Below, in pieces: positions 1-47,933 of a DNA stretch of 64,000 bases. The notes under the pieces were generated by a model. The model was given only the letters and a program-made list of their open reading frames with translations, was not told the DNA's origin and ran no database searches. Every line of letters starts with the position of its first letter. Position 1 is the stretch's first letter. A program made the translations under genes and the position numbers. Origin of the DNA: Nemertoderma westbladi (Eukaryota; Animalia; Xenacoelomorpha); contig JAUCBJ010005609.1 of NCBI GenBank assembly GCA_032718475.1, positions 22,055-86,054 of the forward strand. Direction: 5' to 3'.

Positions 1-1
1 C

Positions 2-484
2 CGGTACGAAGACGAGAACAGTAGAGAGGGGGGTCGAAGAGAAACTTTCCGACGGAATACACCTATCGATCGAGAATACGGTAGCCGCGGGGAGGATTAT
101 TCGAGAAGAATAAACTTCGATCCCGAACAACACATGCAGACTGTAGGACATACTGTAGGCCTTACTGCACATACTGTAGGCCATACTGAGAGAGGCAATG
201 TAGGCGATAGGATAGCGTGGACAACGGGATTAAACCCGGAAGTCGCGGAATACATACCGGCGGGTAGGCCAGAAGCTGATAGGCCTATACCGGTACCAGC
301 ACAGCAGTATGACTACAGCATGCAGGGACATAACATATACCCAGGGGAGGGGGGAATTATTGCGGATAGGTGCATGGGCCCCAACATATTAACATCAACC
401 CCAGTACCAAACATACTGGTGGGGGGGGGGGGGGGGGGCAGGGTGACATTCCCCCATCACAATATCAACAATATACCCCGATAG
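2..484 (+). CDS. gag: N-terminal part of BEL Gag (frame open from the window start; joins the 370-1836 frame by a frameshift, probably at the G18 run 421-438)
   Basis: Frame 2 has no stop from nt 2 to 481 (RYEDENSREGGRRETF...LNPEVAEYIP...LTSTP); frame 1 has a TAG at 367-369, so the switch lies between 370 and 484. Confidence 0.6.
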   Translation, partial: RYEDENSREGGRRETFRRNTPIDREYGSRGEDYSRRINFDPEQHMQTVGHTVGLTAHTVGHTERGNVGDRIAWTTGLNPEVAEYIPAGRPEADRPIPVPAQQYDYSMQGHNIYPGEGGIIADRCMGPNILTSTPVPNILVGGGGGGRVTFPHHNINNIPR

Positions 485-1836
485 GAGCGAGAACAACGAG
501 ACCCTTGGATGAGAATAGGTCGTGTGACACAGAAATATGGAGGGGGCCGCTACCCCCGATGACATACCCAAGTCAGAGAAAGTCAAGAAATAGGACAGAC
601 GGAACGCACCAGACAGGAGAAACTATACAGCACCCATCGAATCCATTGGAAGCACAGGCGATGGGGATGGCCACGTTGATCGATGCGTTGAAAACGAGGA
701 TCGAGTTACCACCCGTGGAACCATTCAAATTCGATGGGAGTAGGCCGGAAGAATATCTACAGTTTCGGCGCATGTATAGTAACGAAATACTAACAAAAAA
801 CTTGACGCAGGCGGAGTGCCTAAAGTATCTACAAGTGTACACGGGAGGCCCAGCATACGACATCGTGAGGCAATATCAAGGGATAGAGGGCGGCTTCACG
901 ACAGCATGGCGGGCACTGGATAGGGAATACGGGCACCCGGCCAAGATCATCAGGCAGACACTGAGAGGCATAACATCGGGTGGCCTACAGGATAATCCCG
1001 TTAGCATTAAGACGTTCGCTAACAAAGTCGAAAAGGCGCTGATCGTGCTGAAGACGCTAGACGCGCCATACGAGCTCAATGCGTCCAACAACATCACCAC
1101 GATAGCGCAGGCACTACCAAACTGGCTGCGCAACAAGTGGAGAAAAATCGCCTTCTCCACTCGAGATAAGAAGGGTGCGGAACCGGGTTTAGAAGAAATG
1201 TCAAACTTCTTAAACTACGAGGCTGAACTAATAACTGACCCAGTCTATAGCGAAGATAGCCTGGGAAAGGGACCAAAGACAGACTACCATAGACCGAAAC
1301 CAGAGCATAACACATCAAACGCATTACCGAGACTCAGGCAATCATTGCCATATGCAGCGACGCAGGGGACTGCAAGTCCACAGCTAGCCGAGGATAAGAC
1401 AACACCATGGAGCGGACAGGGAAACAATAACAACACGAATAAACATAACCCCAGTACGTCCAGTAGGCTAAATCCAAACAATAAGAATAGTAGGGACTTT
1501 GGTACAAACGCAACTGAGATACGCAATGCACTGTATAAAGAGGGCTACGACCCAAAGAGCAAATGCCAGCTACACGCAAATGCGCTTCATCAAACCATGA
1601 ACTGCAGGTACTGGCAGGCGCTACCTAGGCAGGATCAGATAGATTATGCGTTCAGCAATAAAATCTGCTCGCGATGTGTAATGAGTGGACATAGAGCAAG
1701 GGAGTGCAAGGAGAAGCCGATAAAATTTGGTCAAAGGAGAGGCCAAACGATGGCGACGAGCACAGTAGGAGCGAAGAAGAGAGGAACGGTGCTACTTGGA
1801 GTAGTACCCGTGCGAGTGATTGGGGAAGGCAATTGA
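370..1836 (+). CDS. gag: BEL/Pao Gag (DUF1759-like capsid region plus zinc knuckles) and start of the protease
   Basis: LPPVEPFKFDGSRPEEYLQF, LKYLQVYTGGPA, AWRALDREYG, LPNWLRNKW are typical BEL Gag motifs; knuckles CQLH-x4-H-x4-C and CSRC-x4-H-x4-C; ends in VVPVRV protease strand and an in-frame TGA. Confidence 0.9.
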   Translation: MHGPQHININPSTKHTGGGGGGGQGDIPPSQYQQYTPIGARTTRPLDENRSCDTEIWRGPLPPMTYPSQRKSRNRTDGTHQTGETIQHPSNPLEAQAMGMATLIDALKTRIELPPVEPFKFDGSRPEEYLQFRRMYSNEILTKNLTQAECLKYLQVYTGGPAYDIVRQYQGIEGGFTTAWRALDREYGHPAKIIRQTLRGITSGGLQDNPVSIKTFANKVEKALIVLKTLDAPYELNASNNITTIAQALPNWLRNKWRKIAFSTRDKKGAEPGLEEMSNFLNYEAELITDPVYSEDSLGKGPKTDYHRPKPEHNTSNALPRLRQSLPYAATQGTASPQLAEDKTTPWSGQGNNNNTNKHNPSTSSRLNPNNKNSRDFGTNATEIRNALYKEGYDPKSKCQLHANALHQTMNCRYWQALPRQDQIDYAFSNKICSRCVMSGHRARECKEKPIKFGQRRGQTMATSTVGAKKRGTVLLGVVPVRVIGEGN

Positions 1837-1851
1837 TCAGTAACAACGCTA

Positions 1852-4800
1852 ATGCTGGTTGATAGTGGAGCTGCCTTCACATTAGTCGAGGAATGGGTGG
1901 CCGAGGAGATAGGATTGAGAACGAGGCCAAGCAGGATGGCGGTAACAACCATCTCTAGCAAAGATGAGATCCTGGAGATGAGAACAGGACGGTGCGCAAT
2001 TGCAGCAATGGCACCAGGATGCGACTATGGGGCAACCATCGACCCCATCCAAGTGATAGAGTCAATTAATATTAATGCCAGGCGACCAACCAACATCGAG
2101 GTCGAGCAGTATAAATTCCTGGACGACATTGACTTCTCAATCCCAGACGTGGACGTTAGGAAGGTGTCCATCATAGTAGGCATGGACTGCCCAACGGCCC
2201 ACGAAAGAATGCAAACGGTCTTCGGCGAAGACAAGCAGAGTGACCCGGTGGCCATATTAACACCATTCGGGTGGACGCTGAGTGGTCCAATTAAGAGCAA
2301 GATACCATTTAGGATGTCGGAGACATCAGGATGCATGTTCGCGGGAACAATGCAGGAAATGGGTGACGAGGGAGCAGAGGAGCAGCTTAAAAGACTGCTC
2401 AGACAGGATTTCGAGGGACTGAAAGAAACCGGAGTCGGGACCTCAGTAGAAGACAAGCAGGCTTTACAAAGCGTGGAGGAATCAATGACATGCAATGAGG
2501 GACGGTATACTATAGGAATGGTATGGAAACTACCGAAGATACCGCTGCCCGACAATAGGGGGATGGTACTCACGAGACTCCGCAAACTGAAACAAACACT
2601 AAAACGGAGCCCCGAGAAGAATGAGTACATCCACAGAACAATTAAGAAGTACGTCGAGAAAGGATGGGCCGTGGAGTTACCGGTCGACGAGCCGAACACG
2701 GATAGAACATATTACCTGCCACTGCACGTGGCTTTAGATCCAAAGAAAGGTAAACTAAGGATGGTAGTCGACGCATCGGCAAAGACCGACGGAAAGTGCT
2801 TAAACGACTACCTGTTAGAAGGCCCAAACATATACAATTCGGGCATAGAGGTGTTACTTAGATTTAGAAATGGGAAACACGCCTTCACGTGTGACATAGA
2901 AGGCATGTTCAACCAAGTCTGTGTAACGGAGGAAGATAGCGACAGTCAGCGCTTCTTATGGTATAACGGCGAGGAAGAACCGTCGATAATACCGGCATAT
3001 AAGATGGTAGTACAGAACATGGGGGCCAAGTCGTCTTCATTTACGACGACTATGGCAGTGAGAGACACAGTAAAGGGGAAGGAAGATAGATACAGCAGTA
3101 GGGCCGTCGATATGATTCGACGCGGCTTCTACGTAGACGACGGAATGGAGTCTGGAAATACGGTTAAGGAGATACTGGATACAGGGCGCGAGGTTCGCGA
3201 CATCCTAAAAGGATCCGGCTTTAACCTGACCAAATTCCAATCCAGTTCGGAAGAATTTATCAAAGCCATAGAGGACAGGAAACCAGAATCGACCATGGAT
3301 AATCCCACAACAGCCAAAGGGCAGGACATGGCGATTAAGAGAACGGAGTCCCAGCAGAAGGCATTGGGAATCATGTGGGATAGAGAGACAGACGAACTGA
3401 AGTATCAGCTGAGCCAGGAGGGCGCAGACATCCACACGAAGAGGGGTTATGTATCGTATATAGCAAGGATATACGATCCCCTAGGCCTAGCATCCCCATT
3501 ATTAGTCACGGGGCAACAGATACTCAAGAGAGTATACAAATTGAAAGATGAGTGGGACGTAGAGGTACCAGAGGAAATCAAGAAACAGTGGAGCAAGTGG
3601 ACAGGAGACTTGGAGAAGATGGGAACATACAACATGCCACGGGTGTATTTCCCGGATGGGAACATGACGAATCTGGACCTACACATGTTCTCCGACGCGT
3701 CGTTGGAAGCGTACGGAGCGGCACTCTACTTAGTACAACGAGAGGGGGCTCATAAGCCAAGACTAGCCTTTAGTAAAGCAAAGTCAACGCCACCAGATTC
3801 AGCATCAGTTCCCAAGTTAGAATTAACAGCTGCGAGACTAGGAGTAAGAGCCACAGCCTACCTAGTGGATACTATTCCCAACATAGTGGAGACACACTAC
3901 TGGACGGACTCCATGGTAGTGCTTGGTTGGCTACATAACGAAAGGACGAGATACCTGATATTCGTCGCGAATAGAGTGGACGAAATAAGGGCGAGCACAG
4001 AACTGGAAAGGTGGCACTACTGCCCAACAGACGAGAACCCAGCGGACTTGCTGTCGAGGGGGGTGGAACGCCACACTTTCCTGAAGAAAGAATTATTGTG
4101 GCAACATGGGCCACAATTTCTGAGCGATAAGGAAGCCTGGCCGCCGATGAGGAAGGTGGACCCGGGCTCGGAAGTAATATCAGAAGGAGAAGAGGGAGAT
4201 TCAGAGGGAGAAGAGATATACTCCCAGATGGTGAGGGAGATTAGGGACGTGCAACCAGGATGGGAACTGTGCGATAACCCGACGGATAAACTCCTCAGCT
4301 ACAGTTCTAGTTGGTATAAGACCAAGAAACTAGTGGCGTACTGGAGAGCCTTCGGAAATTTCCTTGCGGGAGTTGGCAAGGACAAGAAGATCAGGACAAC
4401 CATAGATCTGGAAGGAGCGGCCAAGGCAGTGATCCGCTATGAACAACGGAAGAACTACGGCGACGAGGTGGAACGCGTCGGTAACCAACAGCACCTCCGA
4501 CGGGACAGCGAGCTGATTACGCTGTCGCCACAACTCAATGACGACGGGATTCTAGTAATGAATTCTAGGGTGGGATATAACAACAGCATAGTCGTACCAC
4601 CGAAACCCATCATCATTCCTACAGGATCGCCAATAGTCCACCAGATTATATGGGACTCCCACAAATCGATATTACATGGGGGCACCAACCGAACCCTCAC
4701 AGAGATAAGGAGGACCTATTGGGTCAAACAACTGAGGAAGAAGGTAAAAGCGGTAGTGGGGCAGTGCCAGACCTGCCGACGAGCGAAGAAGGAGCGAGCC

Positions 4801-5769
4801 GTACAGGAGATGGCGCCACTACCGGCAAGTAGGGTAAGACAGCACGACCCGCCATTTACGCATTGCGGTGTGGACATGTTCGGGCCGATCAAGATCAAAG
4901 TGATGCGACACACGGAGAAACGCTATGGCATTATCTTCGTATGCAACAATACGCGGGCGGTAGGGATAGAACTCGCCCAAGATGCAACCGCATCAGCGTT
5001 CATTAACGCCTTAGAAAGGTTTAGGGACCGCAAAGGTGGGACGATCGCAGTGATATACAGCGACAACAGCACCAACTTTGTGGGCGCAGAGAGTGAGATG
5101 GCAGAGGCCTTGGACATCTTGGAGGGAGAAGAAGTCAGGGCAGCCATGAGACGACGACAAGTAAAGTGGGAGAGAAGGACGCCGTATGCACCACATACAC
5201 TAGGATGCGTCGAGAGACTGGTGGGCAGTTCAAAGCGTCTAATGACGAAGCTAATGAACACCCACATGGTCACTGAGGACGTCTTACGGACAGTACTTGC
5301 GAAGTGCGAGGGGATCATTAATAGCAGACCGCTATATCCGGAGAATGATGACCCTGAGTCATTAGACGTGCTGACGCCTAGCCATTTCCTGATGGAAAGG
5401 CCAGCGACCATCGATATGCGGGGTGTAGACCCAGATGACATATACTCCCGCCAAAGTTGGAAAGTCGCAAAGGCAATAAGCGCAGAGTATTGGAGGAGGT
5501 GGGTCGAGGAATACCTACCCACGCTCCATAAGCGAAGCAAGTGGAGGAAGCCAAACAGGGAGTTAAGAGTAGGAGATCTCGTAATCGTTACGGATGATAC
5601 TATCATCAACAACCAATGGCGGTTGGCGAGAGTTGTAGGCACCTACTCCGACGAGGACGGAAGAGTCCGATCGGTAGAAGTGCGGATAGGTGGAAAGATA
5701 GGTGCGAAGGACAGGAAAACCTACAGGAGAGCAGTAGGCAAATGCTGTCTGCTAGAAGGGGCACCTTAA
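1852..5769 (+). CDS. pol: BEL/Pao Pol: aspartic protease, reverse transcriptase, RNase H, integrase
   Basis: Protease LVDSGA; RT YYLPLH, LRMVVDAS, CDIEGMFNQV, FYVDD; RNase H FSDAS, PKLEL, WTDS, NPADLLSRG; integrase H-x4-H...CQTC, GVDMFGP, SDNSTNF, ERLV; C-terminal WRRWVEEYL...W...VGDLV tail. Confidence 0.97.
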   Translation: MLVDSGAAFTLVEEWVAEEIGLRTRPSRMAVTTISSKDEILEMRTGRCAIAAMAPGCDYGATIDPIQVIESININARRPTNIEVEQYKFLDDIDFSIPDVDVRKVSIIVGMDCPTAHERMQTVFGEDKQSDPVAILTPFGWTLSGPIKSKIPFRMSETSGCMFAGTMQEMGDEGAEEQLKRLLRQDFEGLKETGVGTSVEDKQALQSVEESMTCNEGRYTIGMVWKLPKIPLPDNRGMVLTRLRKLKQTLKRSPEKNEYIHRTIKKYVEKGWAVELPVDEPNTDRTYYLPLHVALDPKKGKLRMVVDASAKTDGKCLNDYLLEGPNIYNSGIEVLLRFRNGKHAFTCDIEGMFNQVCVTEEDSDSQRFLWYNGEEEPSIIPAYKMVVQNMGAKSSSFTTTMAVRDTVKGKEDRYSSRAVDMIRRGFYVDDGMESGNTVKEILDTGREVRDILKGSGFNLTKFQSSSEEFIKAIEDRKPESTMDNPTTAKGQDMAIKRTESQQKALGIMWDRETDELKYQLSQEGADIHTKRGYVSYIARIYDPLGLASPLLVTGQQILKRVYKLKDEWDVEVPEEIKKQWSKWTGDLEKMGTYNMPRVYFPDGNMTNLDLHMFSDASLEAYGAALYLVQREGAHKPRLAFSKAKSTPPDSASVPKLELTAARLGVRATAYLVDTIPNIVETHYWTDSMVVLGWLHNERTRYLIFVANRVDEIRASTELERWHYCPTDENPADLLSRGVERHTFLKKELLWQHGPQFLSDKEAWPPMRKVDPGSEVISEGEEGDSEGEEIYSQMVREIRDVQPGWELCDNPTDKLLSYSSSWYKTKKLVAYWRAFGNFLAGVGKDKKIRTTIDLEGAAKAVIRYEQRKNYGDEVERVGNQQHLRRDSELITLSPQLNDDGILVMNSRVGYNNSIVVPPKPIIIPTGSPIVHQIIWDSHKSILHGGTNRTLTEIRRTYWVKQLRKKVKAVVGQCQTCRRAKKERAVQEMAPLPASRVRQHDPPFTHCGVDMFGPIKIKVMRHTEKRYGIIFVCNNTRAVGIELAQDATASAFINALERFRDRKGGTIAVIYSDNSTNFVGAESEMAEALDILEGEEVRAAMRRRQVKWERRTPYAPHTLGCVERLVGSSKRLMTKLMNTHMVTEDVLRTVLAKCEGIINSRPLYPENDDPESLDVLTPSHFLMERPATIDMRGVDPDDIYSRQSWKVAKAISAEYWRRWVEEYLPTLHKRSKWRKPNRELRVGDLVIVTDDTIINNQWRLARVVGTYSDEDGRVRSVEVRIGGKIGAKDRKTYRRAVGKCCLLEGAP

Positions 5770-5914
5770 CTTGGAGTTAGAGTTGAGTTTAGTCGTCCAA
5801 GTTTTGGACTGAGGGGGGTGGGATTGAGGGCGAGACGCCCTTCCCACAAACAAAATAGAAAAAATAAAATAAAATAAATAATAGTACATGCTAGGTACGC
5901 AGTTAGTAGGCAGA

Positions 5915-6560
5915 AGTTAGTTAAGAGGTACGTAGTACCTGGTCAGTTAGTTAGTTAGAAGGTACGTAGTACCTAGTCAGTTAGTTAGTTAGAAGGTACG
6001 TAGTACCTAGTTAGTTAGTTAGTTAGAAGGTACGTAGTACCTAGTTAGTTAGAGAGTTAGAGGGTACGTAGTACCGATAATTAGTCAGAGAGTTAGAGGG
6101 TACGTAGTACCGATAGTTAGTTAGAGAGTTAGAGGGTACGTAGTACCGATAATTAGTCAGAGAGTTAGAGGGTACGTAGTACCGATAGTTAGTTAGAGAG
6201 TTAGAGGGTATGTAGTACCGATAGTTAGTTAGAGAGTTAGAGGGTACGTAGTACCGATAGTTAGTTAGAGAGTTAGAGGGTACGTAGTACCGATAGTTAG
6301 TTAGAGAGTTAGAGGGTACGTAGTACCGATAGTTAGTTAGAGAGTTAGAGGGTACGTAGTACTGATAGTTAGTTAGAGAGTTAGAGGGTACGTAGTACCG
6401 ATAGTTAGTCAGAGAGTTAGAGGGTACGTAGTACCGATAGTTAGTTAGAGAGTTAGAGGGTACGTAGTACCGATAGTTAGTTGGAGAGTTAGAGGGTATG
6501 TAAGTACCGTTAGTTAGAAGAGTTAGAGTTAGAGGGTACGTAGTACCGTTTGTTAGAAGA
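5915..6560 (+). repeat. Tandem array of ~18 units (4 x 34 bp, then 36 bp), each containing the hairpin GGTAC-GTA-GTACC
   Basis: GGTAC cores at 5927, 5961, 5995, 6029, 6063, then every 36 bp to 6495, last at 6535; consensus AGTTAGAGGGTACGTAGTACCGATAGTTAGTTAGAG. Confidence 0.95.
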
Positions 6561-7053
6561 GAGAGAGTAAGAGGTAAAAGGAGATATAGATATAGATATT
6601 AGTTAGCAGTTAGTAGCGTTAGTAGCGAGAGGGGGGCATATGAGTACAGCTGGGTAAGTCGTGTGGCCACACGACGCATACTGCTGTACTGCATAGACCC
6701 ACAGAGTAGGCCAGAATGTGGATTAGAGAATAGAATAATCCATAGGCAGTAGTAAGTAGTAGGACAGTAGAATCAAATTAAAATAGATAAATAAATAGAA
6801 TAGGGCTGAAAGTTGTAAAATAGTGGCAACACAAGGGAAGTTATTCTAGAACATAATAAAAGTAACGGACAGAAATTGTAAATTACGCTCATTTACTAGC
6901 TTCAAAATTAATTAGGAATAATTTAGGTTAAAAGGCGCAGTTAAGTAGGAAATAGGCCATTACCGAACCGTACAGAACATCTTAGATACATCACTCATCT
7001 GTATTGCGCCTTGGTAAGGCACCACCTTGCAGGTGAGCGAGTGAACGTTCGGA

Positions 7054-9603
7054 ATGGCGAGTAAGTTAATCAGAAAGAGAAAAGCGGAGTCAGGAGGAAA
7101 GGAGATACTGGTGGATTTCACCGAGAGGCATCCGGAAGAGAAGACGAGAGGATACTACGAGAGGTTGGAAAGGGGTCACGCGGCGCGAGCGCTGCAGGAT
7201 CACTTCAGGGAGATGCACGAACAGCGGCTGGTCGGGACCTACGGGATGCCGTCGCTGGACAACGCGATCTTCCAACACTTCCACTACGTGGTGAAAGGGG
7301 ACGAGGCGAAGTTCGGGATTCCGAAGTACCCGAGGGAATCACCGAGGAAGGACTGGAAGAGATTCATAGAGTCCGTCAACAGAGGAGGATATATGATCCT
7401 GGATGATGAGGGAACCGTGGAAGACGAGGCGGGTTCGAGACGAGGAACAGCGGGGTCAGCCAGGACCATACTCCTACATTTGGCCGCGCCAAATGGGGAC
7501 ATCTTCTTATTCGACCTAGGGACGTATGGGAAGAAGGACGGGCCAAAATTAGACCGGTTACCGAAAGCGGTACAAGTCTTAGTGAGAGAGAAGTCGACGA
7601 CGAAAGTGGGATCGGCGATTCGCGAGGACGCGGAGAGGATCATCGGTCCGGACGCCACCAACCTCCTGGATATGCAGAAAGTCTTTATGGCTATGACGGC
7701 ACCGGATGGGTTGGGGGTAGTCGAAAACACAGGCCAATGCGGGGCGGTGGCGATGGGCCAATTATTGGGGCTCGTATGCCACAAACCGATGGACTGGGGG
7801 AAGTTTAGGGAAGAATACGGAGCAGAACTAGCGAACTCGCTAAAGTGGGGAGCGAGACCGGGAAAGCAGGAGGTATATCAGTTCCGCAGGGGAGCGATAA
7901 AGGTATATCAGAAGCGATATATCCTGCAGGAGGACTGGATGATGATAAGTTTGCTTAACTTATTCATGACCGTGATTATCGAGAGGGAACCAGGGGCATT
8001 TCTGTTATCGGGATCACCCCTAAGCTACAGGAGAGCCTTTAAAGTGGCCTTTGACGGTCTGGTAGACCACCCGGGGCTGAAGGGCGAGTCGGTGTACTAC
8101 AACAGCCGACATCTGGTAGACGGGGAGACAGATACACCGTATCAGAGATGGGAGCAGCTAGAGACGGATAGACGAGAAGCAAAGCGACTGGAAGAAGTCG
8201 CTAGACGGGAGAGGATAGAAGCAGAGGAGAGGGAAGAGGAGGCCAGGACACAGAGTTACGGCTTCGAGGAACAGGCAGGCCTGGACGAGCTTCATTGGAC
8301 TTCATCAGGGAGTTCGGGGGAGTCTCTAGGGCGAGAATTGGGATGGACGGTGGGATCGCCGAAACAGTCGACGTCGGGGTTGCAAACGATGCCCATACCA
8401 GCGGGCGCCGAGGGCGACCAACCGCCAAGGAAGTTAAGGGAGCTAGAGGGATGGAGAGCTACGGGCGGGAGCCAAGGCGGGAAGGGACGTAGTGGATCCA
8501 TCGGGATACCGGGATTGGAGACACTACCAGAAGAGGAGGACGACGACGGCGAGTTCGGAGAGATGCCGCCCATCGAGAGGATAGGCCACTCGGACACAGA
8601 CTGGGTTGGCGGAAGGGTGGTGACGGCCAGTGGGGCGAGGGCCTTCTGGAACAGATCCGGCAAGCGGACCTGGGTGCACGAGGAGCCGGCGATGGATTTC
8701 GCGGGGAGCACCATCAGGTTGGGCGAACAACCGGGGACTGCACCACGGGTAGTATTCGGGGAGACGATGCCCGAGAGGGGTGGAGAGATCGACGTAGATA
8801 GAGAGACCAACGTAGAGAAGTTCGCCTACCAGCGACTCCACAGACCGCGGAGATCACTTGGGACGAAAGACGAGGTGGGACGGGAGACATTGGTACTCGG
8901 CTGCGACTACTGTGGGAGACAGACCCATCGGGAAAGCAGCTGCCTATACCGGTTCCAAAAGGGAACCTTTTGTCTCTACTGCAGAGAACCAAGCCACAGG
9001 ATGGGGGCGTGTCCACGGTTGCATAACCAATGTCCAAAGTGCCACTTTCGGGGACACTACGGACGCGAGTGCGACTGGATGAACGACGAGGAGAAGTTCA
9101 CAAGATTCGAGGAGTGGGCCGACGTCGGGGCCATGACGCGCCAGCGCATGAAGGCCCAGGAGTTCAAGTGGGGTTTCTTCCTTATCAATCAGGAGACTCA
9201 CATGGAAATCATAAAGCGGAGGCTACCGTTTACCTACCAAGAGGTAGCAACGGCGGGGTCGTACGCCGGAGTGATGAACACGCAAAGGTATTTGGACAGG
9301 TGGACGCCAGAGAACCGAAGGGAGTTTAGGGATTTCTTGGCGGAGCACGTACCAAAGGCAATGAAAATGATCCTATGGGACGCCACCAGAGGGAGACAAC
9401 TGGGCCACTCTGAGGGGCCACCGGCGAAGCGATATCGGGCACTAATAACACCAGCGCCCAAGGAGCCAACGACCGGGATCAGCAGGGAGGTGGCGGCGAA
9501 GGTCCGAAAGCAGAAAGCGGATGATGCCAGAGGAACGGTGATAACCAAGAAACGGCCCAGGGAAGAGGACGCCAGGGGGAACTATCCCCAGAGGAACAGA
9601 TAG
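7054..9603 (+). CDS. Retrotransposon ORF3: DEDDy-type 3'-5' exonuclease-like domain plus three CCHC zinc knuckles
   Basis: 849-aa uninterrupted ORF; ExoI ILDDEG (D117/E119), LLHLA...IFLFDL, LPKAVQVLV, ExoII KVGSAIRED (D192), NLLDM, ExoIII QKRYILQED (Y289, E293/D294); knuckles CDYC-x4-H-x4-C, CLYC-x4-H-x4-C, CPKC-x4-H-x4-C at 8902-9072. Confidence 0.8.
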   Translation: MASKLIRKRKAESGGKEILVDFTERHPEEKTRGYYERLERGHAARALQDHFREMHEQRLVGTYGMPSLDNAIFQHFHYVVKGDEAKFGIPKYPRESPRKDWKRFIESVNRGGYMILDDEGTVEDEAGSRRGTAGSARTILLHLAAPNGDIFLFDLGTYGKKDGPKLDRLPKAVQVLVREKSTTKVGSAIREDAERIIGPDATNLLDMQKVFMAMTAPDGLGVVENTGQCGAVAMGQLLGLVCHKPMDWGKFREEYGAELANSLKWGARPGKQEVYQFRRGAIKVYQKRYILQEDWMMISLLNLFMTVIIEREPGAFLLSGSPLSYRRAFKVAFDGLVDHPGLKGESVYYNSRHLVDGETDTPYQRWEQLETDRREAKRLEEVARRERIEAEEREEEARTQSYGFEEQAGLDELHWTSSGSSGESLGRELGWTVGSPKQSTSGLQTMPIPAGAEGDQPPRKLRELEGWRATGGSQGGKGRSGSIGIPGLETLPEEEDDDGEFGEMPPIERIGHSDTDWVGGRVVTASGARAFWNRSGKRTWVHEEPAMDFAGSTIRLGEQPGTAPRVVFGETMPERGGEIDVDRETNVEKFAYQRLHRPRRSLGTKDEVGRETLVLGCDYCGRQTHRESSCLYRFQKGTFCLYCREPSHRMGACPRLHNQCPKCHFRGHYGRECDWMNDEEKFTRFEEWADVGAMTRQRMKAQEFKWGFFLINQETHMEIIKRRLPFTYQEVATAGSYAGVMNTQRYLDRWTPENRREFRDFLAEHVPKAMKMILWDATRGRQLGHSEGPPAKRYRALITPAPKEPTTGISREVAAKVRKQKADDARGTVITKKRPREEDARGNYPQRNR

Positions 9604-10312
9604 GTTCCCAGAGTCGAGGGATAGAGACTGAGACTGGGACGTGGTGCGCCTGGAAGGCGCTGCGTGGGACGTACGAACTATTAAGTACAAATTTAATTAA
9701 TGCAAATAATCATATAAGTGCAATTTGTATGTAAGTATGTAGTAATTAGTAATCTACGAATATATACGCTGGGAGTAAGTACTATAGTCATACAACCTTT
9801 CTCAATTAGCTACTGGGACTGGGGGATAACTGACTATGGCACTATGGACGAGACACCAGACAATTTCACACTTCTTGAGTGCGACGGCACAAGAGGGGGG
9901 GGGGGGGGGAGATTCGTCAGAAGGGATGAGGTAGTCAGAATAGGGTTGAGGGACAGAGTAGTAGGTGCGAAGTGCGAAGAGAGTGCGGACGCAATTCTAG
10001 TGTGGGGGGGGGGAGAATAAGAGACTGAGTAAGGGATGAGGAGGTCCGAGTGTATGAGAGAGTTAGGATGAGAGTGAAGAAGAGATAGGGCGGAAGTGTT
10101 GGGGAAACAAAAGTTGCGTGAGAGGTGAGCGCGATCGGCCCGACATGAGACGCCAGGCACACGGGGTAGCGTTATCATACCCATCGGGGGCGGCCTGGAA
10201 AGCCGGCTCCGAGAGAAAAGAATTCCACCCCACACCCGATACTAGATCGGGATCCAGCGGGATTGTAGCGCACTTTTTGGTTGATGCTATCTTCTTACCG
10301 GGAAGATAGCAT

Positions 10313-10321
10313 GGGGGGGAG
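10313..10321 (+). other. Polypurine tract of element 1
   Basis: GGGGGGGAG immediately followed by TGT; preceded by a perfect 11-bp inverted repeat (10284-10312). Confidence 0.8.
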
Positions 10322-10858
10322 TGTTAGCTTATTCAATCCCGCTAACACCCCATAAAGTTATAAGCCGATAAGCAATATTGGGAGCCACGAGATTGGGTAA
10401 TTAACCAACTCGTGCCATCCCAATGAGAATGGGAAGGAGAAGCACACAATGAGGGTCAGGGGCCAAACCCCTAACCCAGAGAGAATAGGTGGAGTGAACG
10501 GGAACACTCCAAAGGGCGCCAACAAGGGTATCAACCAATCAGAGGGGGGAAAGGCATCGATTAGGTAGAGCAACAAGGCCAACCGTGCAATATAGCCACT
10601 TGGCAGTAATAATACCAATTCAGTTATCTCAGTGCAATACCGGTGCTAGATTAGGTTACATAGTTTTAGATAGGGAAGGACCGGGACTTTAGTTACCGTA
10701 TCCCGCCTTCCGTATACGACAATATATCTATATCTATATCTATACCTGCATATCATATTATATACGACAAACAGCACGAACTCATTTACTCTTTATACAC
10801 GGCGGGGACGCGTGAACTAAAACCGGATAAACCGGGATCCCTCTTGGATCCCGTCACA
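10322..10858 (+). repeat. 3' LTR of element 1 (~537 bp)
   Basis: Starts TGTTAG directly after the PPT; ends ...GTCACA where composition shifts to AT-rich; no 5' LTR in the window to confirm the right end. Confidence 0.65.
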
Positions 10859-11629: not shown

Positions 11630-12907
11630 ATGTTTCTTATGGCTTTATCAGTATCAATGCAGGAAACTATAAATGTAATAGGCAACACAACGTTTGAGAG
11701 TACGGGCGGTGTAGGACAGGGTAAGCCTTCCAGCTGTCCACTATTTTGTACACACATAGACCCTACGATTACAAAAATGGATCGTTTAGGAAAGGACAGT
11801 TGGCTAGGTTCTCTTCATGGAACATTATTAATGGATGACACATGTGTATTGGCTACCTCCCGAGCAAAGTTAACTGATAAACTTAACATCCTTAAAGATG
11901 TATGCGATGAAATTGGAATGACTTTACATCCTAAAAAGTCGAAATTTCTGACCTCATCCACTCTCGATAGCGACAGAATCCCCATCTTGATAGGGAACAT
12001 CACAATCTCAATTGTATCCTCATATGTCTATTTGGGATCTTTAATATCAATTCACCCTGTAGCGGTTCAAATTGATGACGAAATTAAGATGCGTATTGGT
12101 AACTGCCACAAATTCACTTCATTCCTCGGCAAAAACTGTGACGCTCCCTTTACCGTGAAGAAGTCAGTATGGCAGGCTGCTCTCCAATCTTCGCTATTAT
12201 ACGGATGCGAAACATGGTTATGTAATAACATCAAACCAATTGTTTCAGTGTTTTACAGAACGCTTAAACAACTACTCTCAGTTCGATTAACAACACCAAA
12301 TGATCTCGTCCTTATTGAAACTGGCACTGAACATGTCAAGAGTATTATTAAGAATCGGCAGTTAAAGTTCCTGAGGTCATTGTCCTCACGGCCTGGATAT
12401 AAAGACAGTTATCATAACTACATTATGAACGAAGCTACATCAGTAAACTCACCAATGGGAAAATACGCCAAAGAGCTGTTAGATACGGGTCATGTCATGT
12501 CGGAACTCCAAGCTGCAAAAGATCGAACTCTTACAGCCATAACGACAAGGTGTGTGAATTATGTGGCATACAACCCAACTCAGAAACCCCACGAATTATA
12601 CTCTGATCCTAATGTACCCGAGTGGGAGAGAATCTCATTTTCAAGGATCAGATTGAGTTCCCATCGGCTACCAATGGAGATACTCCGATGGTCTCGGATT
12701 CCGAGAGAGAATCGTAAATGCTTATGTGGTTCTACCCAATCAGATCATCACATATTCTTTGTCTGCCCACTAACCGAAAGTATTCGCTTGGATTTCGACT
12801 TTCCACCACCATCGTCATCCCTATCCAGAGTATTTGATAACCTCGGAACCCGATCCGCATCAATTTGCCATAAAATTATTAAAGTATTAGAGCCCGCACA
12901 AGTATAA
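11630..12907 (+). mobile_element. 5'-truncated non-LTR retrotransposon ORF2 (C-terminal RT and zinc finger; RTE-X-like)
   Basis: GVGQG..S.PLF, LLMDDT, YVYLGS, LLYGCETW, RIRLSSHRL..E..RW..IPRENRKC.C...HIFFVCP. Confidence 0.85.
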
Positions 12908-21399: not shown

Positions 21400-23700
21400 T
21401 GGTGGTAAGCATGTCATTGTACATGAGTCTTGTAAGCCTGTTGTTAGAAAGAGACAATATCCTAACCCAGAATTTTAACATCGAGAGCTTCCTCCAGAGA
21501 GCCAATGGAAGTACGCCAGATTCTCCATATACTGTAAAGTTGGGTGAGTTCGTTTAATGTCAATTATGTGCTTTAAAAAAACCTAACTGGACTCTCTACT
21601 GCTAGGGTGTCATGGAACCCCCAGATATCCGACCCGTAGTTCAAAATAGGAGGGGAAATTAAGGGCGAAAATGACATGTTTGGGAAACATGCCATGTACT
21701 TATAGAGCGAGAAAAGAGCTTTACCTGCCTTTTGAGCAAGTATACATTGTCCGCATGTGAATTTACCTGTAAAGGAGATTCCAAGATAGTTATACTGAGA
21801 TACTACTTTAACTTTGTTTCCTTTATAGTACCATTCATCACTGCTGGCTACTGCACCACCTTTCCTAAATATTACCACATTTGTCTTCATATATTCGCAA
21901 TATGCACCTTGATTATCAAAAGATTTATCAAGATCAACCCTAGAAGATGAAACCAGAATGAGATCATCCGCATACAGCAGTGAAAATAGTTTAATGTGGG
22001 TTACTAGTGTTATACCTTGCACCCCACCCAGTCGCAACTCTCCCCAGATAGACACTCTCCATGCAAAACATAGTAAGTAGTCATAGACATCTGAATTCTC
22101 ACCAGCCCATTTGACATCCTTTACCACACTAAATATTCTGCCGTGAAACCCAAACAAATCAACTTAACCCACAGAGTACTACGCTCTACACTATCGAATG
22201 CCTTTTGAAAGTCTACAAAACCACTAAACACCTTATCGCCATTCACTAATTATTGGTTTATAAGCCCACTTAAGACAAACAAATGGTCAGTGGTTCTGTA
22301 ACCAAATCTAAAACCAGCTTGAGCATATGTAATTGCATTGAAAGCCTCGGCCCACCATGCAATTCTAGAATTTAAGATGGAAGATAACTTCCCCAAACAA
22401 CTTAAAAGCGAAATACCCCTAAAGTTATTTGTACCCGAACTGTCCTTATTCTTATAAATAGGAGTCACCAGTGCCACTGACCATTGTTTGGGAAAATGAC
22501 CACTAAATATAACAGCATTGAACATGGGCGTAATTAGTGGTACTAAAGCTGATCTTCCCTCAATGAAGAATTCATTTAACAAGAGGTCCTCCCCAGGCGG
22601 GTGCCTTGTGACGTTTTAGCCTATAAATTGCGATATTAACCTTATCCTCTGTGATTGGCTGCAATAACTCATTTTCCATTAGACTTTTACTGTCTTCACA
22701 ATTAATGTAAACTGGAGGGTCTATCCCTACATCTGAAAATTCCAGTGTCATAGAACAAAGATCCTGGAAGTGTTTTTCGAAATCTTCTGCAGTTAGTGTA
22801 GTTGATGGGCTGTTCGATATTTTCCCGAAACATTTTTTAATAGAGTTCAGAATTTCTATGATTCAGTTACATTTAACATTTCTAGACGCATTTAATTTTT
22901 ATCACCGATATTACCCTTGTTAGTCCTACTCTTATTATTGGTCAAATTGTTGTGAATATCCCAGGCCAGTGTGGCACTTGGTAGGCAATGTTTCGTTGGT
23001 AACATGCTGGGCTCATCCACCTTGAATTTCACACAATTCCGTAATAATTTTACGTCCACCAACATTATTAGATCAATATTAGATTTCCCCACAACCGTTT
23101 TCGTAGCTGCATAGTAGGTGAACTTTCCATAAGGGGCGTCCTCTTCAACACATCCATTCATAATTTTCATGCCTGTCGATCAGCATAACTGTAATAAGCG
23201 TCTTCCATATGTGTTAACTACAGTGTCACAATTATTACGCGTCCTCGTTACCCCTCCCCATATAGGTAGTCTGAATCATACTCATAGTCATCTGGGAGAA
23301 TGTCATCAAGGCAGCTTGTGTCGGCCTCATCGTCTTCTATATAGTCTTTTTCTAGTCCTGTTCTAGAGTTGAGATCTCAAATGAGTATAACGTCATGTGT
23401 GTTACCCAATAGTACAATACCCTCCTCAATTTTATCAAAAATTGCAATGGTATCGGCTATCTGGGCTCTCTGTCCATCAGCCCCAACATAAACTGCACAA
23501 ATAAGGATATCTTTAATCAACACCAATTTTTTACCACCTATTTCTAACTAAACTAAGTCCTCATGTTCAGGCGCTTTAAAATGTTGTGTTGAGTTCTCTC
23601 TCAACTGCATAAATATTTTTGAAATAAACAGTTACCCCACCACTAAAGCGCCCAGCACCTGTCGATTTAGCTATCCTGTAACTGTATGTATATATTGTAG
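21400..23700 (-). pseudogene. Degenerate non-LTR retrotransposon ORF2 (endonuclease plus RT; RTE-X-like)
   Basis: NNFRGISLLSCLGKL, QAGFRFGYRTTDHLF, LLYADDLIL, YNYLGI, ILNYGSDIWGF in successive minus-strand frames; endonuclease-like FTY...SNIDL upstream. Confidence 0.85.
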
Positions 23701-28869: not shown

Positions 28870-30671
28870 GTAAGCTGTCTATTTATATTTTATGTAAGTT
28901 CTAGAACATTTTATTTATTCTAAAAAATCTAGTAGTCTTAAAAACGTAAAATAACAATTTTAAGATGTGCATCAATTGTAGCCTTATATACTTCAAATCG
29001 ATCGACAAGAAAAAATTACATTTTCGGAGAACCCTTCGATTTCACTCTCAGCGTTTCAAAATTGATTGGTTTTGGCTATAATTTGGAATATAGGTGCCTA
29101 ATATGCTATTCTACATGACAGGACAGAAAATTTTATTTTTATTTTATTTAAATTATTATATTTATTTTATTTTTTTAATTATGTATTTAATATTAGTTAA
29201 TGCTAGTTAACAATAAAAAAACTTGGTTCCGCTTAAAACCCTGAGGCTTTATCTAGATCTGATCTAGATGCGGTGATCTAAATCTGCAACAGTTCCCATT
29301 TTCAGATAAAAAAACCTCAGTTACTTTTTTTTGGACCATTTTGGTCACGCTCACGCAAATGATTCATATGCACTGATGAACCACCCAAAATTACCAATCT
29401 AACTGAAATACATAGAAGAATATGAGTGGAAGTGGGAACACATCGGGTTAACGGCCCACATTTGCCAATTTATATGCCATTAAATTAATCGTTTACCGAG
29501 TGTCACGTATGCGACAAAAAATCGGACCACGTAATTGTTTTTTTGTATTTCTGATATCTCCAATTTATTACAAAGCTACGTTTATATGTTCACAGGAATT
29601 ATACAAATCAGGGATATTAATCGTTTAGCACCCGAATTGTAATTTTAATGGCCAAAATAAGACCGTGATCACAATCATAAAATTTGAAATTTGTCGCTTA
29701 ATTGACGATTTTTTTTTATAGCTTTTTCTATAACAAACTGTGGTTGGAGTGTATCACAAGCAGGAGGGGACCGATCATTGGTATTCGGCAATCAAATTAT
29801 CAAAGCCATCCGACCATTTATTCTCGAATGATTTACATTTTTGCATATTTTTAGTCCCGTACGTGACTTGGTCAATATGGTTGGCATTGACCCATTGTAA
29901 TAGGACAAGCAACACTACTCTAGCAATTCTTAACCCATTTTTTGTTATTTTCGCTCCATACCCTATGATATGCCTATGTAATTTCATAAGCTCGATAAAT
30001 TTCAGGCAGTTTTTTTCTATTTCATAATATTATTAATATAATTTTGTGTTTATTCAAAAATATTATTAGGTTATTTACAAATTAAAAAACCACATGGGGG
30101 GGGGGGGGGGGGGTGGGTTGTGCCCCCACCCCCCTTAATGAGTGCACTAAATGTACACAATGCAAAAACACCGCAACTGACAGACTTGAGGTGTTTTGCC
30201 ATTGTGACATTTGTTTTTGCATTGTATCGAATGTATTGACATACAGATTGTACAATGCGAAAACACCGTAAGTACAAAAAATAATCCCGAAGTCAAAATA
30301 TTAATGGAAAGCGAAAAATAATCAAGTGGAAAAATTTCCCACCCCAAATTGCGTAGGGTTATATAGTAAGTAATTAGTAATTTACGGACATTTTAAACCA
30401 ACAATCTTAAAGCAAACAGTATTTTGCGTTTTACTCGAAATTACTTTTCGTGACTTGCGGTTGTTTCCCATTGCACGGCGGATATGGGCGGCATGCAGTA
30501 CGTGTACTAATTTACTGTATAATGTATATTAAGCGTTAGTGAGGCTGAGCCCAACCAATTACTAATATTATTGGCAAAAAGTAGTCCGTTAGCTCAGCAT
30601 GTACAGTAGACATACTGTAGTCATAAAATGATAGTTCTCCTTTAGACTTTATCATATTCTTAATATTAATG

Positions 30672-32428
30672 CCCGATAAAAACCGAACAACCAACAAACG
30701 AAAACATTAACAAGGTTGAGAAAGCTAAGGACGATCTTAAATTTGCCTGCCAGGAGAAGTACATACAGGATAAAACTGAAGCAATTACAACAGCTCACAT
30801 ACAACAACAATCAAGACTTACCTGGCAAACTGTGAATGAGGTATCTGGTCGGAAAAGTTGTGCAAAGGGGCGCCTCAAAGCCGATAGTCCTGAAGAATGT
30901 GTTGGGAAGTGGAAAAATCACTTCAGCAACTTGCTTGGCAGCCACCAAACATCGAGGTCAGCCCTACAAGGAAAATATATGACAAGACACTACCAATAGA
31001 AACAGGGGACTTCACACCTGCCTAACTCCAAAGAAGCATTAAAAGCATGTCCAATAATAAAGCGAGTGGATTAGATGAAATCCCAGTGGAGGTATGGAAA
31101 ACCGGAGTGCTAAACAGACCATTATTGAATGTTTGCAACCGGATGTTAAAAGGGGAAAAGCCACCACCAATTTGGACTAAAGGTCAACTAAAGCCTCTCC
31201 CCAAGAAAGGAGACCTCGCCTTACCAACAAACTATCGTGGGATCTGTCTGCTTGTGGTAGCTGCCAAAATATACAATAAAATGATTCTATATAGGATTAG
31301 AGAAACACATAGAGAAACTACTGCGTAAGAGCGAAAATGGATTTCGACCAAGTAGATCAACAATAGCTCAGATACTTTGCACTACGGAGACTACGGAGAG
31401 GTAAAATGCTTGAAATCCTAAGGAATACCAGAAGTTTGTTGCTGGCATAGGACTGTTATATTGTGACACAGAAGCGCAGGTACTCTCACCAAATGGTGAA
31501 ACTGAGTTTTTCTCAATCCTGGCTGACGTACTGCAAGGTGACACATTAGCACCATTACTATTTGTAATTGTGTTGGATTACGCAATGAGGACGGCCACAA
31601 AGGGTGAAGATCTGGGATTCACATTTCAAGAACGCAGAAGTAGTAGATATCCGGCAACTACAGTCACAGACACAGACTTTTGCGGATGGCATCGCCCTGC
31701 TCTCTAATACGCTAGCAGATGCACAGCATCTACTAAATAAAGTGGAGAGGGCTGCTAAGGAGGTTGGATTGCATATAAATGCTACAAAGACCGAATTCAT
31801 GACCTTTAATGCTGATGGAAACTTGACAACCATTGATAATAATCAACTAAGGAAGGTCGATGACTTCCAGTACCTTGGATCATGGATAGAGAGTAGCAAA
31901 AAGGACATAGAAGTTAGGAAAGCAAAGGCTTATGTAGCTCTTCCAAAAATGGATACCATCTGGAAATCAGATCTCTCCAGGCACCTGAAGACTAAGTTCT
32001 TTCGAGCCACAGTGGAAAGTGTATTTTTATATGGGGGTGAGACCTGGATACTGACTAAATCACTTGAACAACGAATTGATGGTTGCTACACAAGACTACT
32101 AAGGGCATCCCTAAACATCAGCTGGAGACAACACGTGACAAACGCCGAGCTTTATGGTACAATACCACCTGTATCAACCACCCTCCGTGAACGCAGATTA
32201 AGATTCAGTGGGCACTGCTGGCGAAGTAAAGACGAGGTCATACCAGATCTACTTTTCTGGCAACCAACTCATGGAAAGCGTAGTCGTGGACGACCGGCCA
32301 TAACATATATAGATCAACTTGAAAGAGATACTGAACTTGGGAGAAACGAAATTGCGACAACTATGGAGAATCGGGATGCCTGGAAGGATCTCATTTCCAC
32401 TGTCTGAGTTCGCTCGACCTAGTAGTAG
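30672..32428 (+). mobile_element. 5'-truncated RTE-clade LINE, copy 1 (frameshifted RT)
   Basis: KASGLDEIP, NYRGICLL, FQYLGS, LYGGETW, RRLRFSGHCWR, GKRSRGRP; (TAG)n tail; 11-bp TSD TAATATTAATG at 30661 and 32429. Confidence 0.92.
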
Positions 32429-34453: not shown

Positions 34454-37400
34454 ATTTCACTCTCAGCGTTTCAAAATTGATTGGTTTTGCTATAATTTGG
34501 AATATAGGTGCCTAAGATGCTATTCTACATGACAGGACAGAAAATTTTATTTTTATTTTATTTAAATTATTATATTTATTTTATTTTTTTAATTATGTAT
34601 TTAATATTAGTTAATGCTAGTTAACAATAAAAAAAACTTGGTTCCGCTTAAAACCCTGAGGCTTTGTCTAGATCTGATCTAGATGCGGTGATCTAAATCT
34701 GCAACAGTTCCCATTTTCAGATAAAAAAACCTCAGTTACTTTTTTTTGGACCATTTTGGTCACGCTCACGCAAATGATTCATATGCACTGATGAACCACC
34801 CAAAATTGCCAATCTAACTGAAATACATAGAAGAATATGAGTGGAAGTGGGAACACATCGGGTTAACGGCCCACATTTGCCAATTTATATGCCATTCAAT
34901 TAATCATTTACCGAGTGTCACATATGCGACAAAAAATCGGACCACGTAATTGTTTTTTTGTATTTCTGATATCTCCAATTTATTACAAAGCTACGTTTAT
35001 ATGTTCACAGGAATTATACAAATCAGGGATATTAATCGTTTAGCACCCGAATTGTAATTTTAATGGCCAAAATAAGACCGTGATCACAATCATAAAATTT
35101 GAAATTTGTCGCTTAATTGACGATTTTTTTTATAGCTTTTTCTATAACAAACTGTGGTTGGAGTGTATCACAAGCAGGAGGGGACCGATCATTGGTATTT
35201 GGCAATCAAATTATCAAAGCCATCCGACCATTTATTATCGAATGATTTACATTTTTGTATATTTTTAGTCCCGTACGTGACTTGGTCAATATGGTTGGCA
35301 TTGACCCATTGTAATAGGACAAGCAACACTACTCTAGCAATTCTTAACCCATTTTTTGTTATTTTCGCTCCATACCCTATGATATGCCTATGTAATTTCA
35401 TAAGCTCGATAAATTTCAGGCGGTTTTTTTCTATTTCATAATATTATTAATATAATTTTGTGTTTATTCAAAAATATTATTAGGTTATTTACAAATTAAA
35501 AAACCACATGGGGGGGGGGGGGGGGGTGGGTTGTGCCCCCACCCCCCTTAATGAGTGCACTAAATGTACACAATGCAAAAACATCGCAACTGACAGACTT
35601 GCGGTGTTTCGCCATTGTGACATTTGTTTTTGCATTTTATCGAATGTATTTACATGCAGGTTGTACATTGTACAATGCGAAAACACCGTAAGTACAAAAA
35701 ATAATCCTGAAGTCAAAATATTAATGGATAGTGAAAAATAATCACGTGGAAAAATTTCCCACCCCAAATTGCGTAGGGTTATATAGTAAGTAATTAGTAA
35801 TTTACGGACATTTTAAACCAACAATCTTAAAGCAAACAGTATTTTGCGTTTTACTCGAAATTACTTTTCGTGACTTGCGGTTGTTTCCCATTGCACGGCG
35901 GATATGGGCGGCATGCAGTACGTGTACTAATTTACTGTATAATGTATATTAAGCGTTAGTGAGGCTGAGCCCAACCAATTACTAATATTATTGGCAAAAA
36001 GTAGTCCGTTAGCTCAACATGTACAGTAGATATACTGTAGTCATAAAATGATCTCCTTTAGACTTTATCATATTCATAATATTAATGCCCGATAAAAACC
36101 GAACAACCAACAACCGAAAACATTAACAAGATTGAGAAAGCTAAGGACGATCTTAAATTGGCCTACAACATCAGCCATGAGAAGTACATACAGGATAAAA
36201 CTGAAGCAATTACAACTGCTCACATACAGCAACAATCAAGACTTACCTGGCAAACTGTAAATGAGGCATCTGGTCGGAAAAGTTGTGCAAAGGGGCGCCT
36301 CAAAGCCGATAGTCCTGAAGAACGTGTTGGGAAGTGGAAAAATCACTTCAGCAACTTGCTTGGGCAGCCACCAAACATCGAGGTCGGCCCTACAAGGAAA
36401 ATATATGACAAGACACTACCAATAGAAACAGGGGACTTCACACCTGCCGAACTCCAAAGAAGCATTAAAAGCATATCCAATAATAAAGCGAGTGGATTAG
36501 ATGAAATCCCAGCGGAGGTATGGAAAACCGGAGTGCTAAACAGACCATTATTGAATGTTTGCAACCGGATGTTAAAAGGGGAAAAGCCACCACCAATTTG
36601 GACTAAAGGTCAACTAAAGCCTCTCCCCAAGAAAGGAGACCTCGTCTTACCAACAAACTATCGTGGGATCTGTCTGCTTGTGGTAGCTGCCAAAATATAC
36701 AATAAAATGATTCTATATAGGATTAGGCCTCACATAGAGAAACTACTGCGTAAGAGCCAAAACGGATTTCGACCAAGTAGATCAACAATAGCTCAGATAC
36801 TTGCACTACGGAGACGATTGAAGGAATTAAGTCAAAGAATCTCCCCGCAGTCATGACTTTTGTGGACTTCAAGAAAGCATTCGACTCCATCCATAGAGGT
36901 AAATGTTTGAAATCCTAAGGAATACCAGAAGTAATTGTTGCTGGCATTGGATTGTTATATTGCGACACAGAAGCGCAGGTACTCTCACCAGATGGTGAAA
37001 CTGAGTTTTTATCAATCCTGGCTGGCGTACTGCAAGGTGACACATTAGCACCATTACTATTTGTAATTGTGCTGGATTACGTAATGAGGACGGCCACAAA
37101 GGGTGAAGATCTGGGATTCACACTTCAAGAACGCAGAAGTAGTAGATATCCGGCAACTACAGTCACAGACACCGACTTTTGTGGATGACATCGCCCTGCT
37201 CTCTAATAAGCTAGCAGATGCACAGCTTCTACTAAATAAAGTGGAGAGGGCTGCTAAGGAGGTTGGATTGCATATAAATGCTACAAAGACCGAATTCATG
37301 ACCTTTAATGTTGATGGAAACTTGACAACCATTGATAATAATCAACTAAGGAAGGTCGATGACTTCCAGTACCTTGGATCATGGATAGAGAGTAGCAAAA

Positions 37401-40908: not shown

Positions 40909-42092
40909 TACGGCATATCTAATTATGAGCAAAATCCAATATTATTTACTCTTCAATATGAATATGTTATTCTTCAATATCCATATACTATCGATAATAT
41001 TACATCATCATGCAATATTAGTACACGTTAATTCAATATATTGAAAATTCAAAAATAAACAGAAATTCAATCAATATTGTGCAAATGTTGATTCAATAAA
41101 CAACATATTGAATTAATATTCGCAAATATTGAATCAATATGTTGACATGTTGGCAACATTTTATTGAATAAATATTATCAAATCAATATATAGGCCTAGG
41201 CTTTTTTTTTTAAATAAGACATCGCATTTTCCATTTTAATAGACTAAATCTAAATAGTGGTGTAATGCATATTTTATATAATGTGTACATTATTATTGTT
41301 TTATATTATTTTCATGTTGCCTATTATATATAGGCAACAAATTTAATCAATATGCTGGCAACATTTTGAATCAATGCGTTAACAAGATGGTGGCAAATTT
41401 ATAATATCATCTGTTTATCTGACTTGCAGTTTCCCATAGTTTGTTCTGAAGTGACGTCCAGCACTGCGATACAGTTGTCCTACAGTACCGGTACCATCGG
41501 TAGTTGTGTTGATACTGTGTTGTATGGCTTCTGACAACTATTTACGCGGAGGGGCTCGCTGTTAGTGGCTGGGATAGAAGATTATGATGAAGGATTCCAT
41601 CGTACCAACCAAACTGGCTAACATTTATGGGCATCATCCTCTTGTAACCGGTACTGTACACACCCAATACAAAAAATTAATTACATTTTGTGTGTCACTA
41701 CACTGCAATACTGTATTTCAGAATCAGTAAGGCATTCTGTAAGCCAGATACCCCAATGATTATTAAATTTGGTGCCAACATTTCAACATATTGATTCCAT
41801 ATGTTGCTAGCATGTTGACATATTGATTCAATATGTGCCAATATTGAATCAGCATGTGCGAATATTGATCCAAAATGTTTGATTATTGAATCAAATTTTG
41901 CGCTTTATTGAATGAATATCTGTAGATTATTTAATATTCAATATATTTTTAATTAATGCGTAATAATATTGCATGATGATTTAATATTATTGATATTAGA
42001 TTATTACTCGCGATATTGGTGTTGAAGTATAATATATTCATATTGAAGATTAAATATTTAATTTTGAGACAAATCAGATGCCATATGCTGTA
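40909..42092. mobile_element. Foldback-like non-autonomous DNA element with long imperfect inverted arms
   Basis: CTTCAATATGAATAT / ATATTCATATTGAAG, CATCATCATGCAATATTA / TAATATTGCATGATGAT and repeated ATTGAATCAATAT motifs mirrored at both ends. Confidence 0.6.
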
Positions 42093-47930: not shown

Positions 47931-47933
47931 CTA

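Follow-up and report, generated by a model that had tools for sequence, protein, structure and literature searches.

The window analysed in this study, a stretch of 64,000 nucleotides from Nemertoderma westbladi, contains a BEL/Pao retrotransposon with a third open reading frame, ORF3 (7054..9603; all features of the element are on the plus strand). ORF3 is very probably a conserved accessory gene of BEL/Pao elements, and its product is predicted to combine a DEDDy exonuclease fold with a triple zinc knuckle. The fusion of a nuclease and knuckles is a family and not an isolated case. As to its mode of action, the sequence probably favors a reading in which binding comes first.

The element was assigned to the BEL/Pao class (Belpaoviridae) on the basis of a DUF1759 gag, a Peptidase_A17 RT/RNase H region and an integrase that follows the RT and ends in DUF5641, and these matches upstream of ORF3 bear out the context proposed in an earlier sequence-only reading of this DNA. 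The gag region (1..1836; DUF1759, E 2.2e-11) runs off the start of the window and was followed by three-frame translation, which revealed a frame change at a G run (421-438) and an in-frame stop (1834-1836) in the gag-pol of the window copy. The pol region (1852..5769) encodes protease, RT and RNase H as well as integrase, and gave Pfam matches to Peptidase_A17 (E 1.5e-39), DUF5641 (E 4.6e-24) and Integrase_H2C2 (E 1.9e-12), together with weak matches to RVT_1 and rve. A non-coding spacer of 1,284 nt (5770..7053) lies between pol and ORF3; it carries stops in all three frames, 46-54 in each, and a 36-bp tandem array (5919-6563, 18.1 copies) whose length differs among element copies, with joints across the array in contigs of sequencing runs X1 and X2. 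Thus, the earlier placement of ORF3 between pol and the LTR held with respect to the LTR-like end at 10858, but ORF3 is not adjacent to pol. The likely 3' LTR (9880..10858) includes a G run at 9895-9909. Its right end, 10858, is supported as the right end of the element by flanks that differ beyond this position in 6 contigs of sequencing run X6; its left edge was placed by a terminal inverted repeat matching at 7 of 8 positions and is uncertain, since no purine tract precedes 9880. The polypurine tract (PPT) has an uncertain position, not directly before the inferred LTR start, and of the two element ends only the 3' end is inside the window.

The element is multi-copy, and the whole stretch or part of it was present in 6 of the 7 sequencing runs listed. 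In four runs, gag, pol, spacer, ORF3 and LTR are represented by contigs with 85-100% likeness, and some of these bridge the array; no single contig of these four runs spans pol to ORF3 or the whole element. Internally deleted family copies without much of ORF3 were also observed, with joints at 7360-9217 and 9066-9626 (contigs of X6 and X1/X2). Elsewhere in the window, a second, unrelated BEL ORF of 1,021 aa (60332-63397) has gag, protease and DUF5641 matches without an RT or Peptidase_A17 match; it is an internally deleted element keeping one open frame, and 21/33-bp repeats precede it at 60058-60348. Furthermore, the window holds a duplication with a spacing of about 5.4 kb (29215-31735 and 34630-37234; 95-99% identity) with RT fragments inside, further RT pieces at 11630-12907 and 21573-22157, and, at 47772-49150, 40943-42056 and 45544-46062, a 27-bp satellite (47 copies, with spurious ORFs) and two nested inverted-repeat MITE-like elements.

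ORF3 is unbroken over its 849 codons, as had been described, and several other features read from the letters alone were found again: the three CX2CX4HX4C knuckles start at aa 617, 640 and 660, the basic patches KLIRKRK, PPAKRYR and KKRPR are present, and the charged helix with its linker appears in the AlphaFold2 model as a helix at aa 362-401 followed by a low-confidence linker to aa 611 (8137..8886), a region of low conservation. The knuckles (aa 617-673) continue into a conserved helical extension to about aa 731 (8902..9246). In the family alignment of 32 sequences, the knuckle region is the best-conserved part and holds all 11 invariant columns (aa 617-668), and conservation is low at both termini of the protein. 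Neither an HRDC nor a helicase domain was detected in ORF3. The earlier statement that ORF3 shares the composition of gag-pol was right for purine (0.631 versus 0.609 in gag and pol, and 0.494 in flanking DNA at 13-30 kb) but not for G+C, which is higher (0.568 versus 0.50). The highest 19-residue hydropathy is 1.32, in agreement with the previous remark that no transmembrane segment is obvious; by hydropathy and with a basic N-terminus, ORF3 lacks envelope features, and an env identity was rejected for want of a transmembrane segment. A second gag was likewise rejected, given that the BEL gag lies upstream and that the knuckles come after the nuclease domain.

The predicted DEDDy (here D-E-D-E) 3'-5' exonuclease domain occupies aa 91-317 (7324..8004) and was delineated by a family profile, PDB profile matches, AlphaFold2, Foldseek and VIA-align. 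Pfam recognized no family in the full ORF3 or in the exonuclease part, including DNA_pol_A_exo1 (PF01612); among 68 homologues scanned, PF01612 gave a single match, at 23.3 bits against a cut-off of 23.6. Similarly, a single-sequence PDB search with ORF3 returned nothing significant, and single-sequence structure prediction reached a pLDDT of only 33. A family profile of 31 homologues, when compared with PDB sequences, matched EXD2 (3.7e-12), Trypanosoma brucei RNase D (2.1e-8, strongest over the knuckles), WRN (1.8e-5) and Egalitarian (2.9e-4). AlphaFold2 with a 32-sequence alignment yielded a block with pLDDT mostly 70-94 over aa 101-340, for which Foldseek found 50 matches at E <= 0.001, the top PDB entries being RNase D, Egalitarian, Rrp6, Nibbler and EXD2. 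In VIA-align, the Nibbler EXO domain ranked highest, with 210 residues aligned at Z 14.5 and rmsd 3.6; WRN and RNase D both reached Z 13.2, and the list also contained DNA-acting enzymes, namely WRN, Pol I proofreading domains and diDNases. The expectation of a DEDD fold of the RNase D/WRN/EXD/Nibbler group was thus supported: the DnaQ-like fold is present in the predicted model, and the DEDDy residues are present in the sequence. ESM Atlas gave leads only, at 0.94-0.95 to eukaryote clusters, at 0.94 to a cluster in which 34% of the members carry PF01612, and at 0.86 or less for the knuckle domain.

Profile alignment placed the predicted catalytic codons at 7402 (D117), 7408 (E119), 7627 (D192), 7918 (Y289) and 7930 (E293), and these residues are kept in 20, 20, 20, 26 and 24 (D or E) of 30 homologues, respectively. 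The Exo motifs named in the sequence-only reading are accordingly in place, except that D294, offered there as an ExoIII acid, was rejected as catalytic: its position is not conserved and its commonest residue is A (12 of 30), whereas E293 is D or E in 24 of 30.

The search among 1.84 billion representatives gave 69 matches at E <= 0.001, mostly via the knuckle region, of which P0039, P0040 and P0070 were dropped as spurious or gag-type before domains were counted. An iterated profile built without the query, from seed sequences chosen by likeness to the query, detected the N-terminal domain in 30 of the 66 homologues and matched ORF3 at aa 91-317, scoring it at 92 bits compared with 1.6 or less for 200 shuffles and the reversed sequence. 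Of the 32 homologues with at least 500 aa, 29 have both domains, and the family comprises about 30 clusters at 50% identity. All four acidic residues are kept in 17 of the 26 homologues that cover every position, which suggested that catalysis matters in most of the family. In P0002, which scored best among the homologues, the exonuclease motif is degenerate and the knuckles form two clusters, at aa 302-322 and aa 497-517. No homologue emerged from word-index protein searches, and the cluster annotation of the 30 homologues held no informative names.

The association of ORF3 with BEL pol, for which a check in relatives had been suggested earlier, was seen in a scan of metagenome contigs with a four-sequence query alignment. 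The scan gave 22 loci, from five accession prefixes only and possibly from one campaign, and in 14 of them a BEL pol lies directly upstream on the same strand; of the remaining eight, six offer no more than about 1 kb of upstream sequence, and the other two match only partially, in the knuckles, and lack pol. Peptidase_A17 was identified in all six gag-pol ORFs tested among the relatives. The 14 pol-linked loci correspond to about 11 distinct elements, and the pol of these elements shares only 27-30% identity with that of the window. Moreover, in three of four circularly permuted contigs, a purine tract, a TG...CA repeat and a primer-binding site lie between ORF3 and the gag that comes after it. 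The start of the primer-binding site, common to three relatives (approximately L002:5746-5757, L008:4578-4589 and L014:7621-7632), presumably resembles a tRNA-Lys site. Across 11 sequences, two of which (L019 and L020) are almost the same, distances in pol track those in the exonuclease (Mantel r 0.74, p 0.0004); with the window left out, r is 0.58 (p 0.005), and four supported groups are common to the pol and exonuclease trees. The linkage was observed for the window, with its intact catalytic set, and for a subclade of ORF3s without the catalytic motif; the other intact homologues lie outside this sampling, because the query alignment was drawn mostly from that dead subclade; no locus for other full-length homologues or close relatives of the window domain was found in viral_contigs, metagenome_contigs (with P0055 as query) or genome_contigs.

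The D-x-E motif is kept in none of the 15 fetched ORF3s that were aligned, a count that partly reflects sampling, since three of the four queries came from the dead subclade. These ORF3s are nevertheless under purifying selection. The pair L015/L018 had a dN of 0.057 and a dS of 0.465, synonymous changes outnumbered non-synonymous ones in L006/L007 (14 versus 7) and L008/L009 (21 versus 6), and deeper pairs had dN of 0.23-0.48 and dS of about 0.9-1.3. In the window's own family, the best 40 of 1,320 rows included 18 ORF3 variants, 13 of which were synonymous (neutral share 0.30, binomial p 0.0003), and all 10 variants in the exonuclease domain were synonymous. This set is a best-supported subset with 10 variants inside one 79-nt stretch, and it is therefore supportive and not a formal dN/dS. 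Together with the relatives' pairs, it supports the purifying selection for which a test of dN/dS below 1 had been suggested. Three outcomes had been set beforehand as contrary to the original proposal, namely no DEDD fold, absence or neutral decay of the ORF in other copies, and an ORF belonging to a separate insertion, and none of these tests went against it.

The persistence of motif-dead ORF3s under purifying selection suggests that binding may matter more than cutting. The loss of the catalytic motif in a conserved, BEL-linked subclade also weakens degradation as a family-wide job. The sequence-only reading had proposed an element-encoded anti-silencing factor that degrades or sequesters small RNAs; on these sequence data, the sequestering or binding version would survive the loss of the motif, and the degradation-only version is weakened.

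The route by which ORF3 is expressed may differ between the window lineage and the dead subclade. In 7 loci of five lineages, the frame of ORF3 is open up to the single TGA stop of pol. In all six lineages aligned (L001:6696-6722, L002:1851-1877, L004:6643-6669, L007:6547-6573, L009:6736-6762 and L013:3412-3438), this TGA has C as its next base, and an invariant TCGGA lies 19 nt past the stop. Five of the six have ORF3 in an open frame behind the stop; L013 has the TCGGA too, but its ORF3 is out of frame. In trials for four lineages, shuffled DNA remained open over stretches of this kind in 3-13% of cases. Readthrough of the pol stop is thus possible in the dead subclade, a splice or promoter signal being the alternative. 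The window lineage cannot use this route because of its 1,284-nt spacer with stops in all frames, and its ORF3 would depend on a message that is separate or spliced. In the window, a TCGGA also occurs immediately before the ORF3 start codon and a few bases after an in-frame stop (7042-7056), which may be chance.

On the binding-first reading, ORF3 would grip single-stranded RNA near the 3' end. By analogy with the trypanosome RNase D, TbRND, in which knuckles bind RNA and a DEDD site cuts, the knuckles of ORF3 would hold the RNA body and its nuclease pocket would take the 3' end, so that binding to single-stranded RNA ends is likely. Judging from the dead subclade, binding would be the shared core job, and the window lineage likely also trims. 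ORF3 may then shield element transcripts from host RNA silencing or surveillance, the target being the least certain step of this mechanism. Protection from host silencing is a tentative purpose, with the balance tipped slightly against it, but it is preferred to the other roles considered below. Counted in its favor are fold neighbours from Foldseek and VIA-align, which include Nibbler, Exd1 and Rrp6. Nibbler and Exd1 have small-RNA roles and Rrp6 has an exosome role, but function does not follow from a common fold, and DNA-acting enzymes appear in this list as well. The fuller proposal, that an old BEL/Pao lineage carries a counter-defence mimic of small-RNA trimming or surveillance enzymes, split into cutting and dead decoy forms with one dead subclade made as a readthrough Gag-Pol-ORF3 fusion, is rather doubtful as a whole.

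Several features of ORF3 would also suit a transport or packaging adaptor for the element's genomic RNA, which, like Egalitarian, would bind an RNA signal and aid export, localisation or packaging. The top Foldseek matches include Egalitarian-BicD-RNA complexes, one of which contains the I-factor localisation signal; dead yet conserved forms fit such a role, the knuckles resemble nucleocapsid and Lin28 knuckles by profile match, and the 7 loci with ORF3 in frame behind the single pol stop could put ORF3 in the particle. However, the Nibbler, NrnC-type, WRN and RNase D folds score at least as high as Egalitarian (Z 12.4, rmsd 5.6), the catalytic set is retained by most homologues, and the window copy has no readthrough route from pol. 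An adaptor role is accordingly considered unlikely. The complete D-E-D-Y-E set of the window and the four acidic residues in 17 of 26 homologues point to an active nuclease, which might serve replication by trimming primers, RNA ends or cDNA overhangs, or by proofreading reverse transcription, as would befit a fold common to WRN and Pol I proofreading domains and a possible fusion to Pol via readthrough in one subclade. That subclade, however, is the very one without the catalytic motif, and gag and pol ordinarily suffice for BEL replication, so that a replicative nuclease appears improbable. The view of ORF3 as a passenger, that is, a gene captured from the host or a fragment of a separate insertion with no role for the BEL element, could draw on the missing pol-to-ORF3 contig in four runs, a G+C above that of gag-pol and the internally deleted copies (joints 7360-9217 and 9066-9626), but it is largely refuted and very improbable in the face of identical position and strand in 14 loci (about 11 elements with pol about 30% identical to the window's), the location of ORF3 inside the PPT-LTR-PBS unit in three of four permuted contigs, co-divergence with pol, purifying selection, and contigs that join both sides of the tandem array.

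BEL/Pao elements are generally portrayed as consisting of gag-pol and, occasionally, an env. In the literature covered, from which subscription journals and Repbase fell outside, neither an exonuclease ORF3 nor a nuclease-plus-knuckle layout was found in BEL/Pao. ORF3 would thus be a conserved third BEL/Pao gene of a non-env kind, invisible to Pfam.

The closest precedent comes from bdelloid rotifers, whose LTR retrotransposons Juno and Vesta carry a DEDDy ORF3 that also occurs in Terminons. This case was mentioned in the sequence-only reading and is indeed reported (Rodriguez et al. 2017, PMC5408684) and cited in turn by PMC6338049 and PMC5718144. As in the present element, a non-envelope ORF3 with an RNase D-like DEDDy domain follows pol, and its function is experimentally unproven there also (PMC5408684). 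The rotifer families named in the consulted part of that report are Juno, Vesta, TelKA and Mag, with no BEL/Pao among them, and the rotifer motif is DEED as opposed to D-E-D-E in ORF3 of the window (PMC5408684). Compared by description, the same part gives no triple-knuckle domain for the rotifer ORF3s, just a Cys-His-Cys motif in Vesta2/5, and no clear link of the DEDDy ORF3 to copy number; it states that all rotifer ORF3s keep the invariant residues, whereas in BEL a whole subclade is dead (PMC5408684).

Among cellular proteins, the layout of ORF3 is most like that of TbRND (PDB 7C42-7C4C), in which CCHC knuckles come after a DEDD exonuclease and grip the RNA upstream of the end being cut, the knuckles binding RNA and the DEDD site cutting the 3' end (PMC7797062). 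TbRND is the top Foldseek match of the ORF3 domain (E 5e-6), at 16% identity. It is, however, a cellular guide-RNA trimmer of about 350 aa, described with four knuckles and a 28-aa linker (PMC7797062), whereas ORF3 has three knuckles and a helical extension about 300 aa away from the exonuclease, and the common layout may be convergent. Nibbler/Mut-7, the WRN exonuclease, Exd1, Egalitarian and Rrp6 share the fold at Z 12-14.5 by VIA-align, and EXD2, at Z 8.6, is the best sequence-profile match, over ExoI-ExoII. These cellular DEDD relatives (Nibbler, EXD2, WRN, Exd1, Egalitarian and Rrp6) are 10-18% identical to ORF3, and no single donor can be named. With regard to expression, the single in-frame stop between pol and ORF3 in 7 fetched loci is like that of SIRE1, whose env-like ORF is expressed by stop-codon suppression (as cited in PMC2829016); SIRE1 is a plant Ty1/copia element with an env-like gene, and the window element has instead its 1,284-nt spacer. 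The natural intact and dead versions of ORF3 in BEL/Pao constitute a pair with which to ask whether retrotransposon DEDD nucleases cut or bind, a question that dates from the rotifer report and bears on whether animal LTR elements encode suppressors of piRNA silencing.
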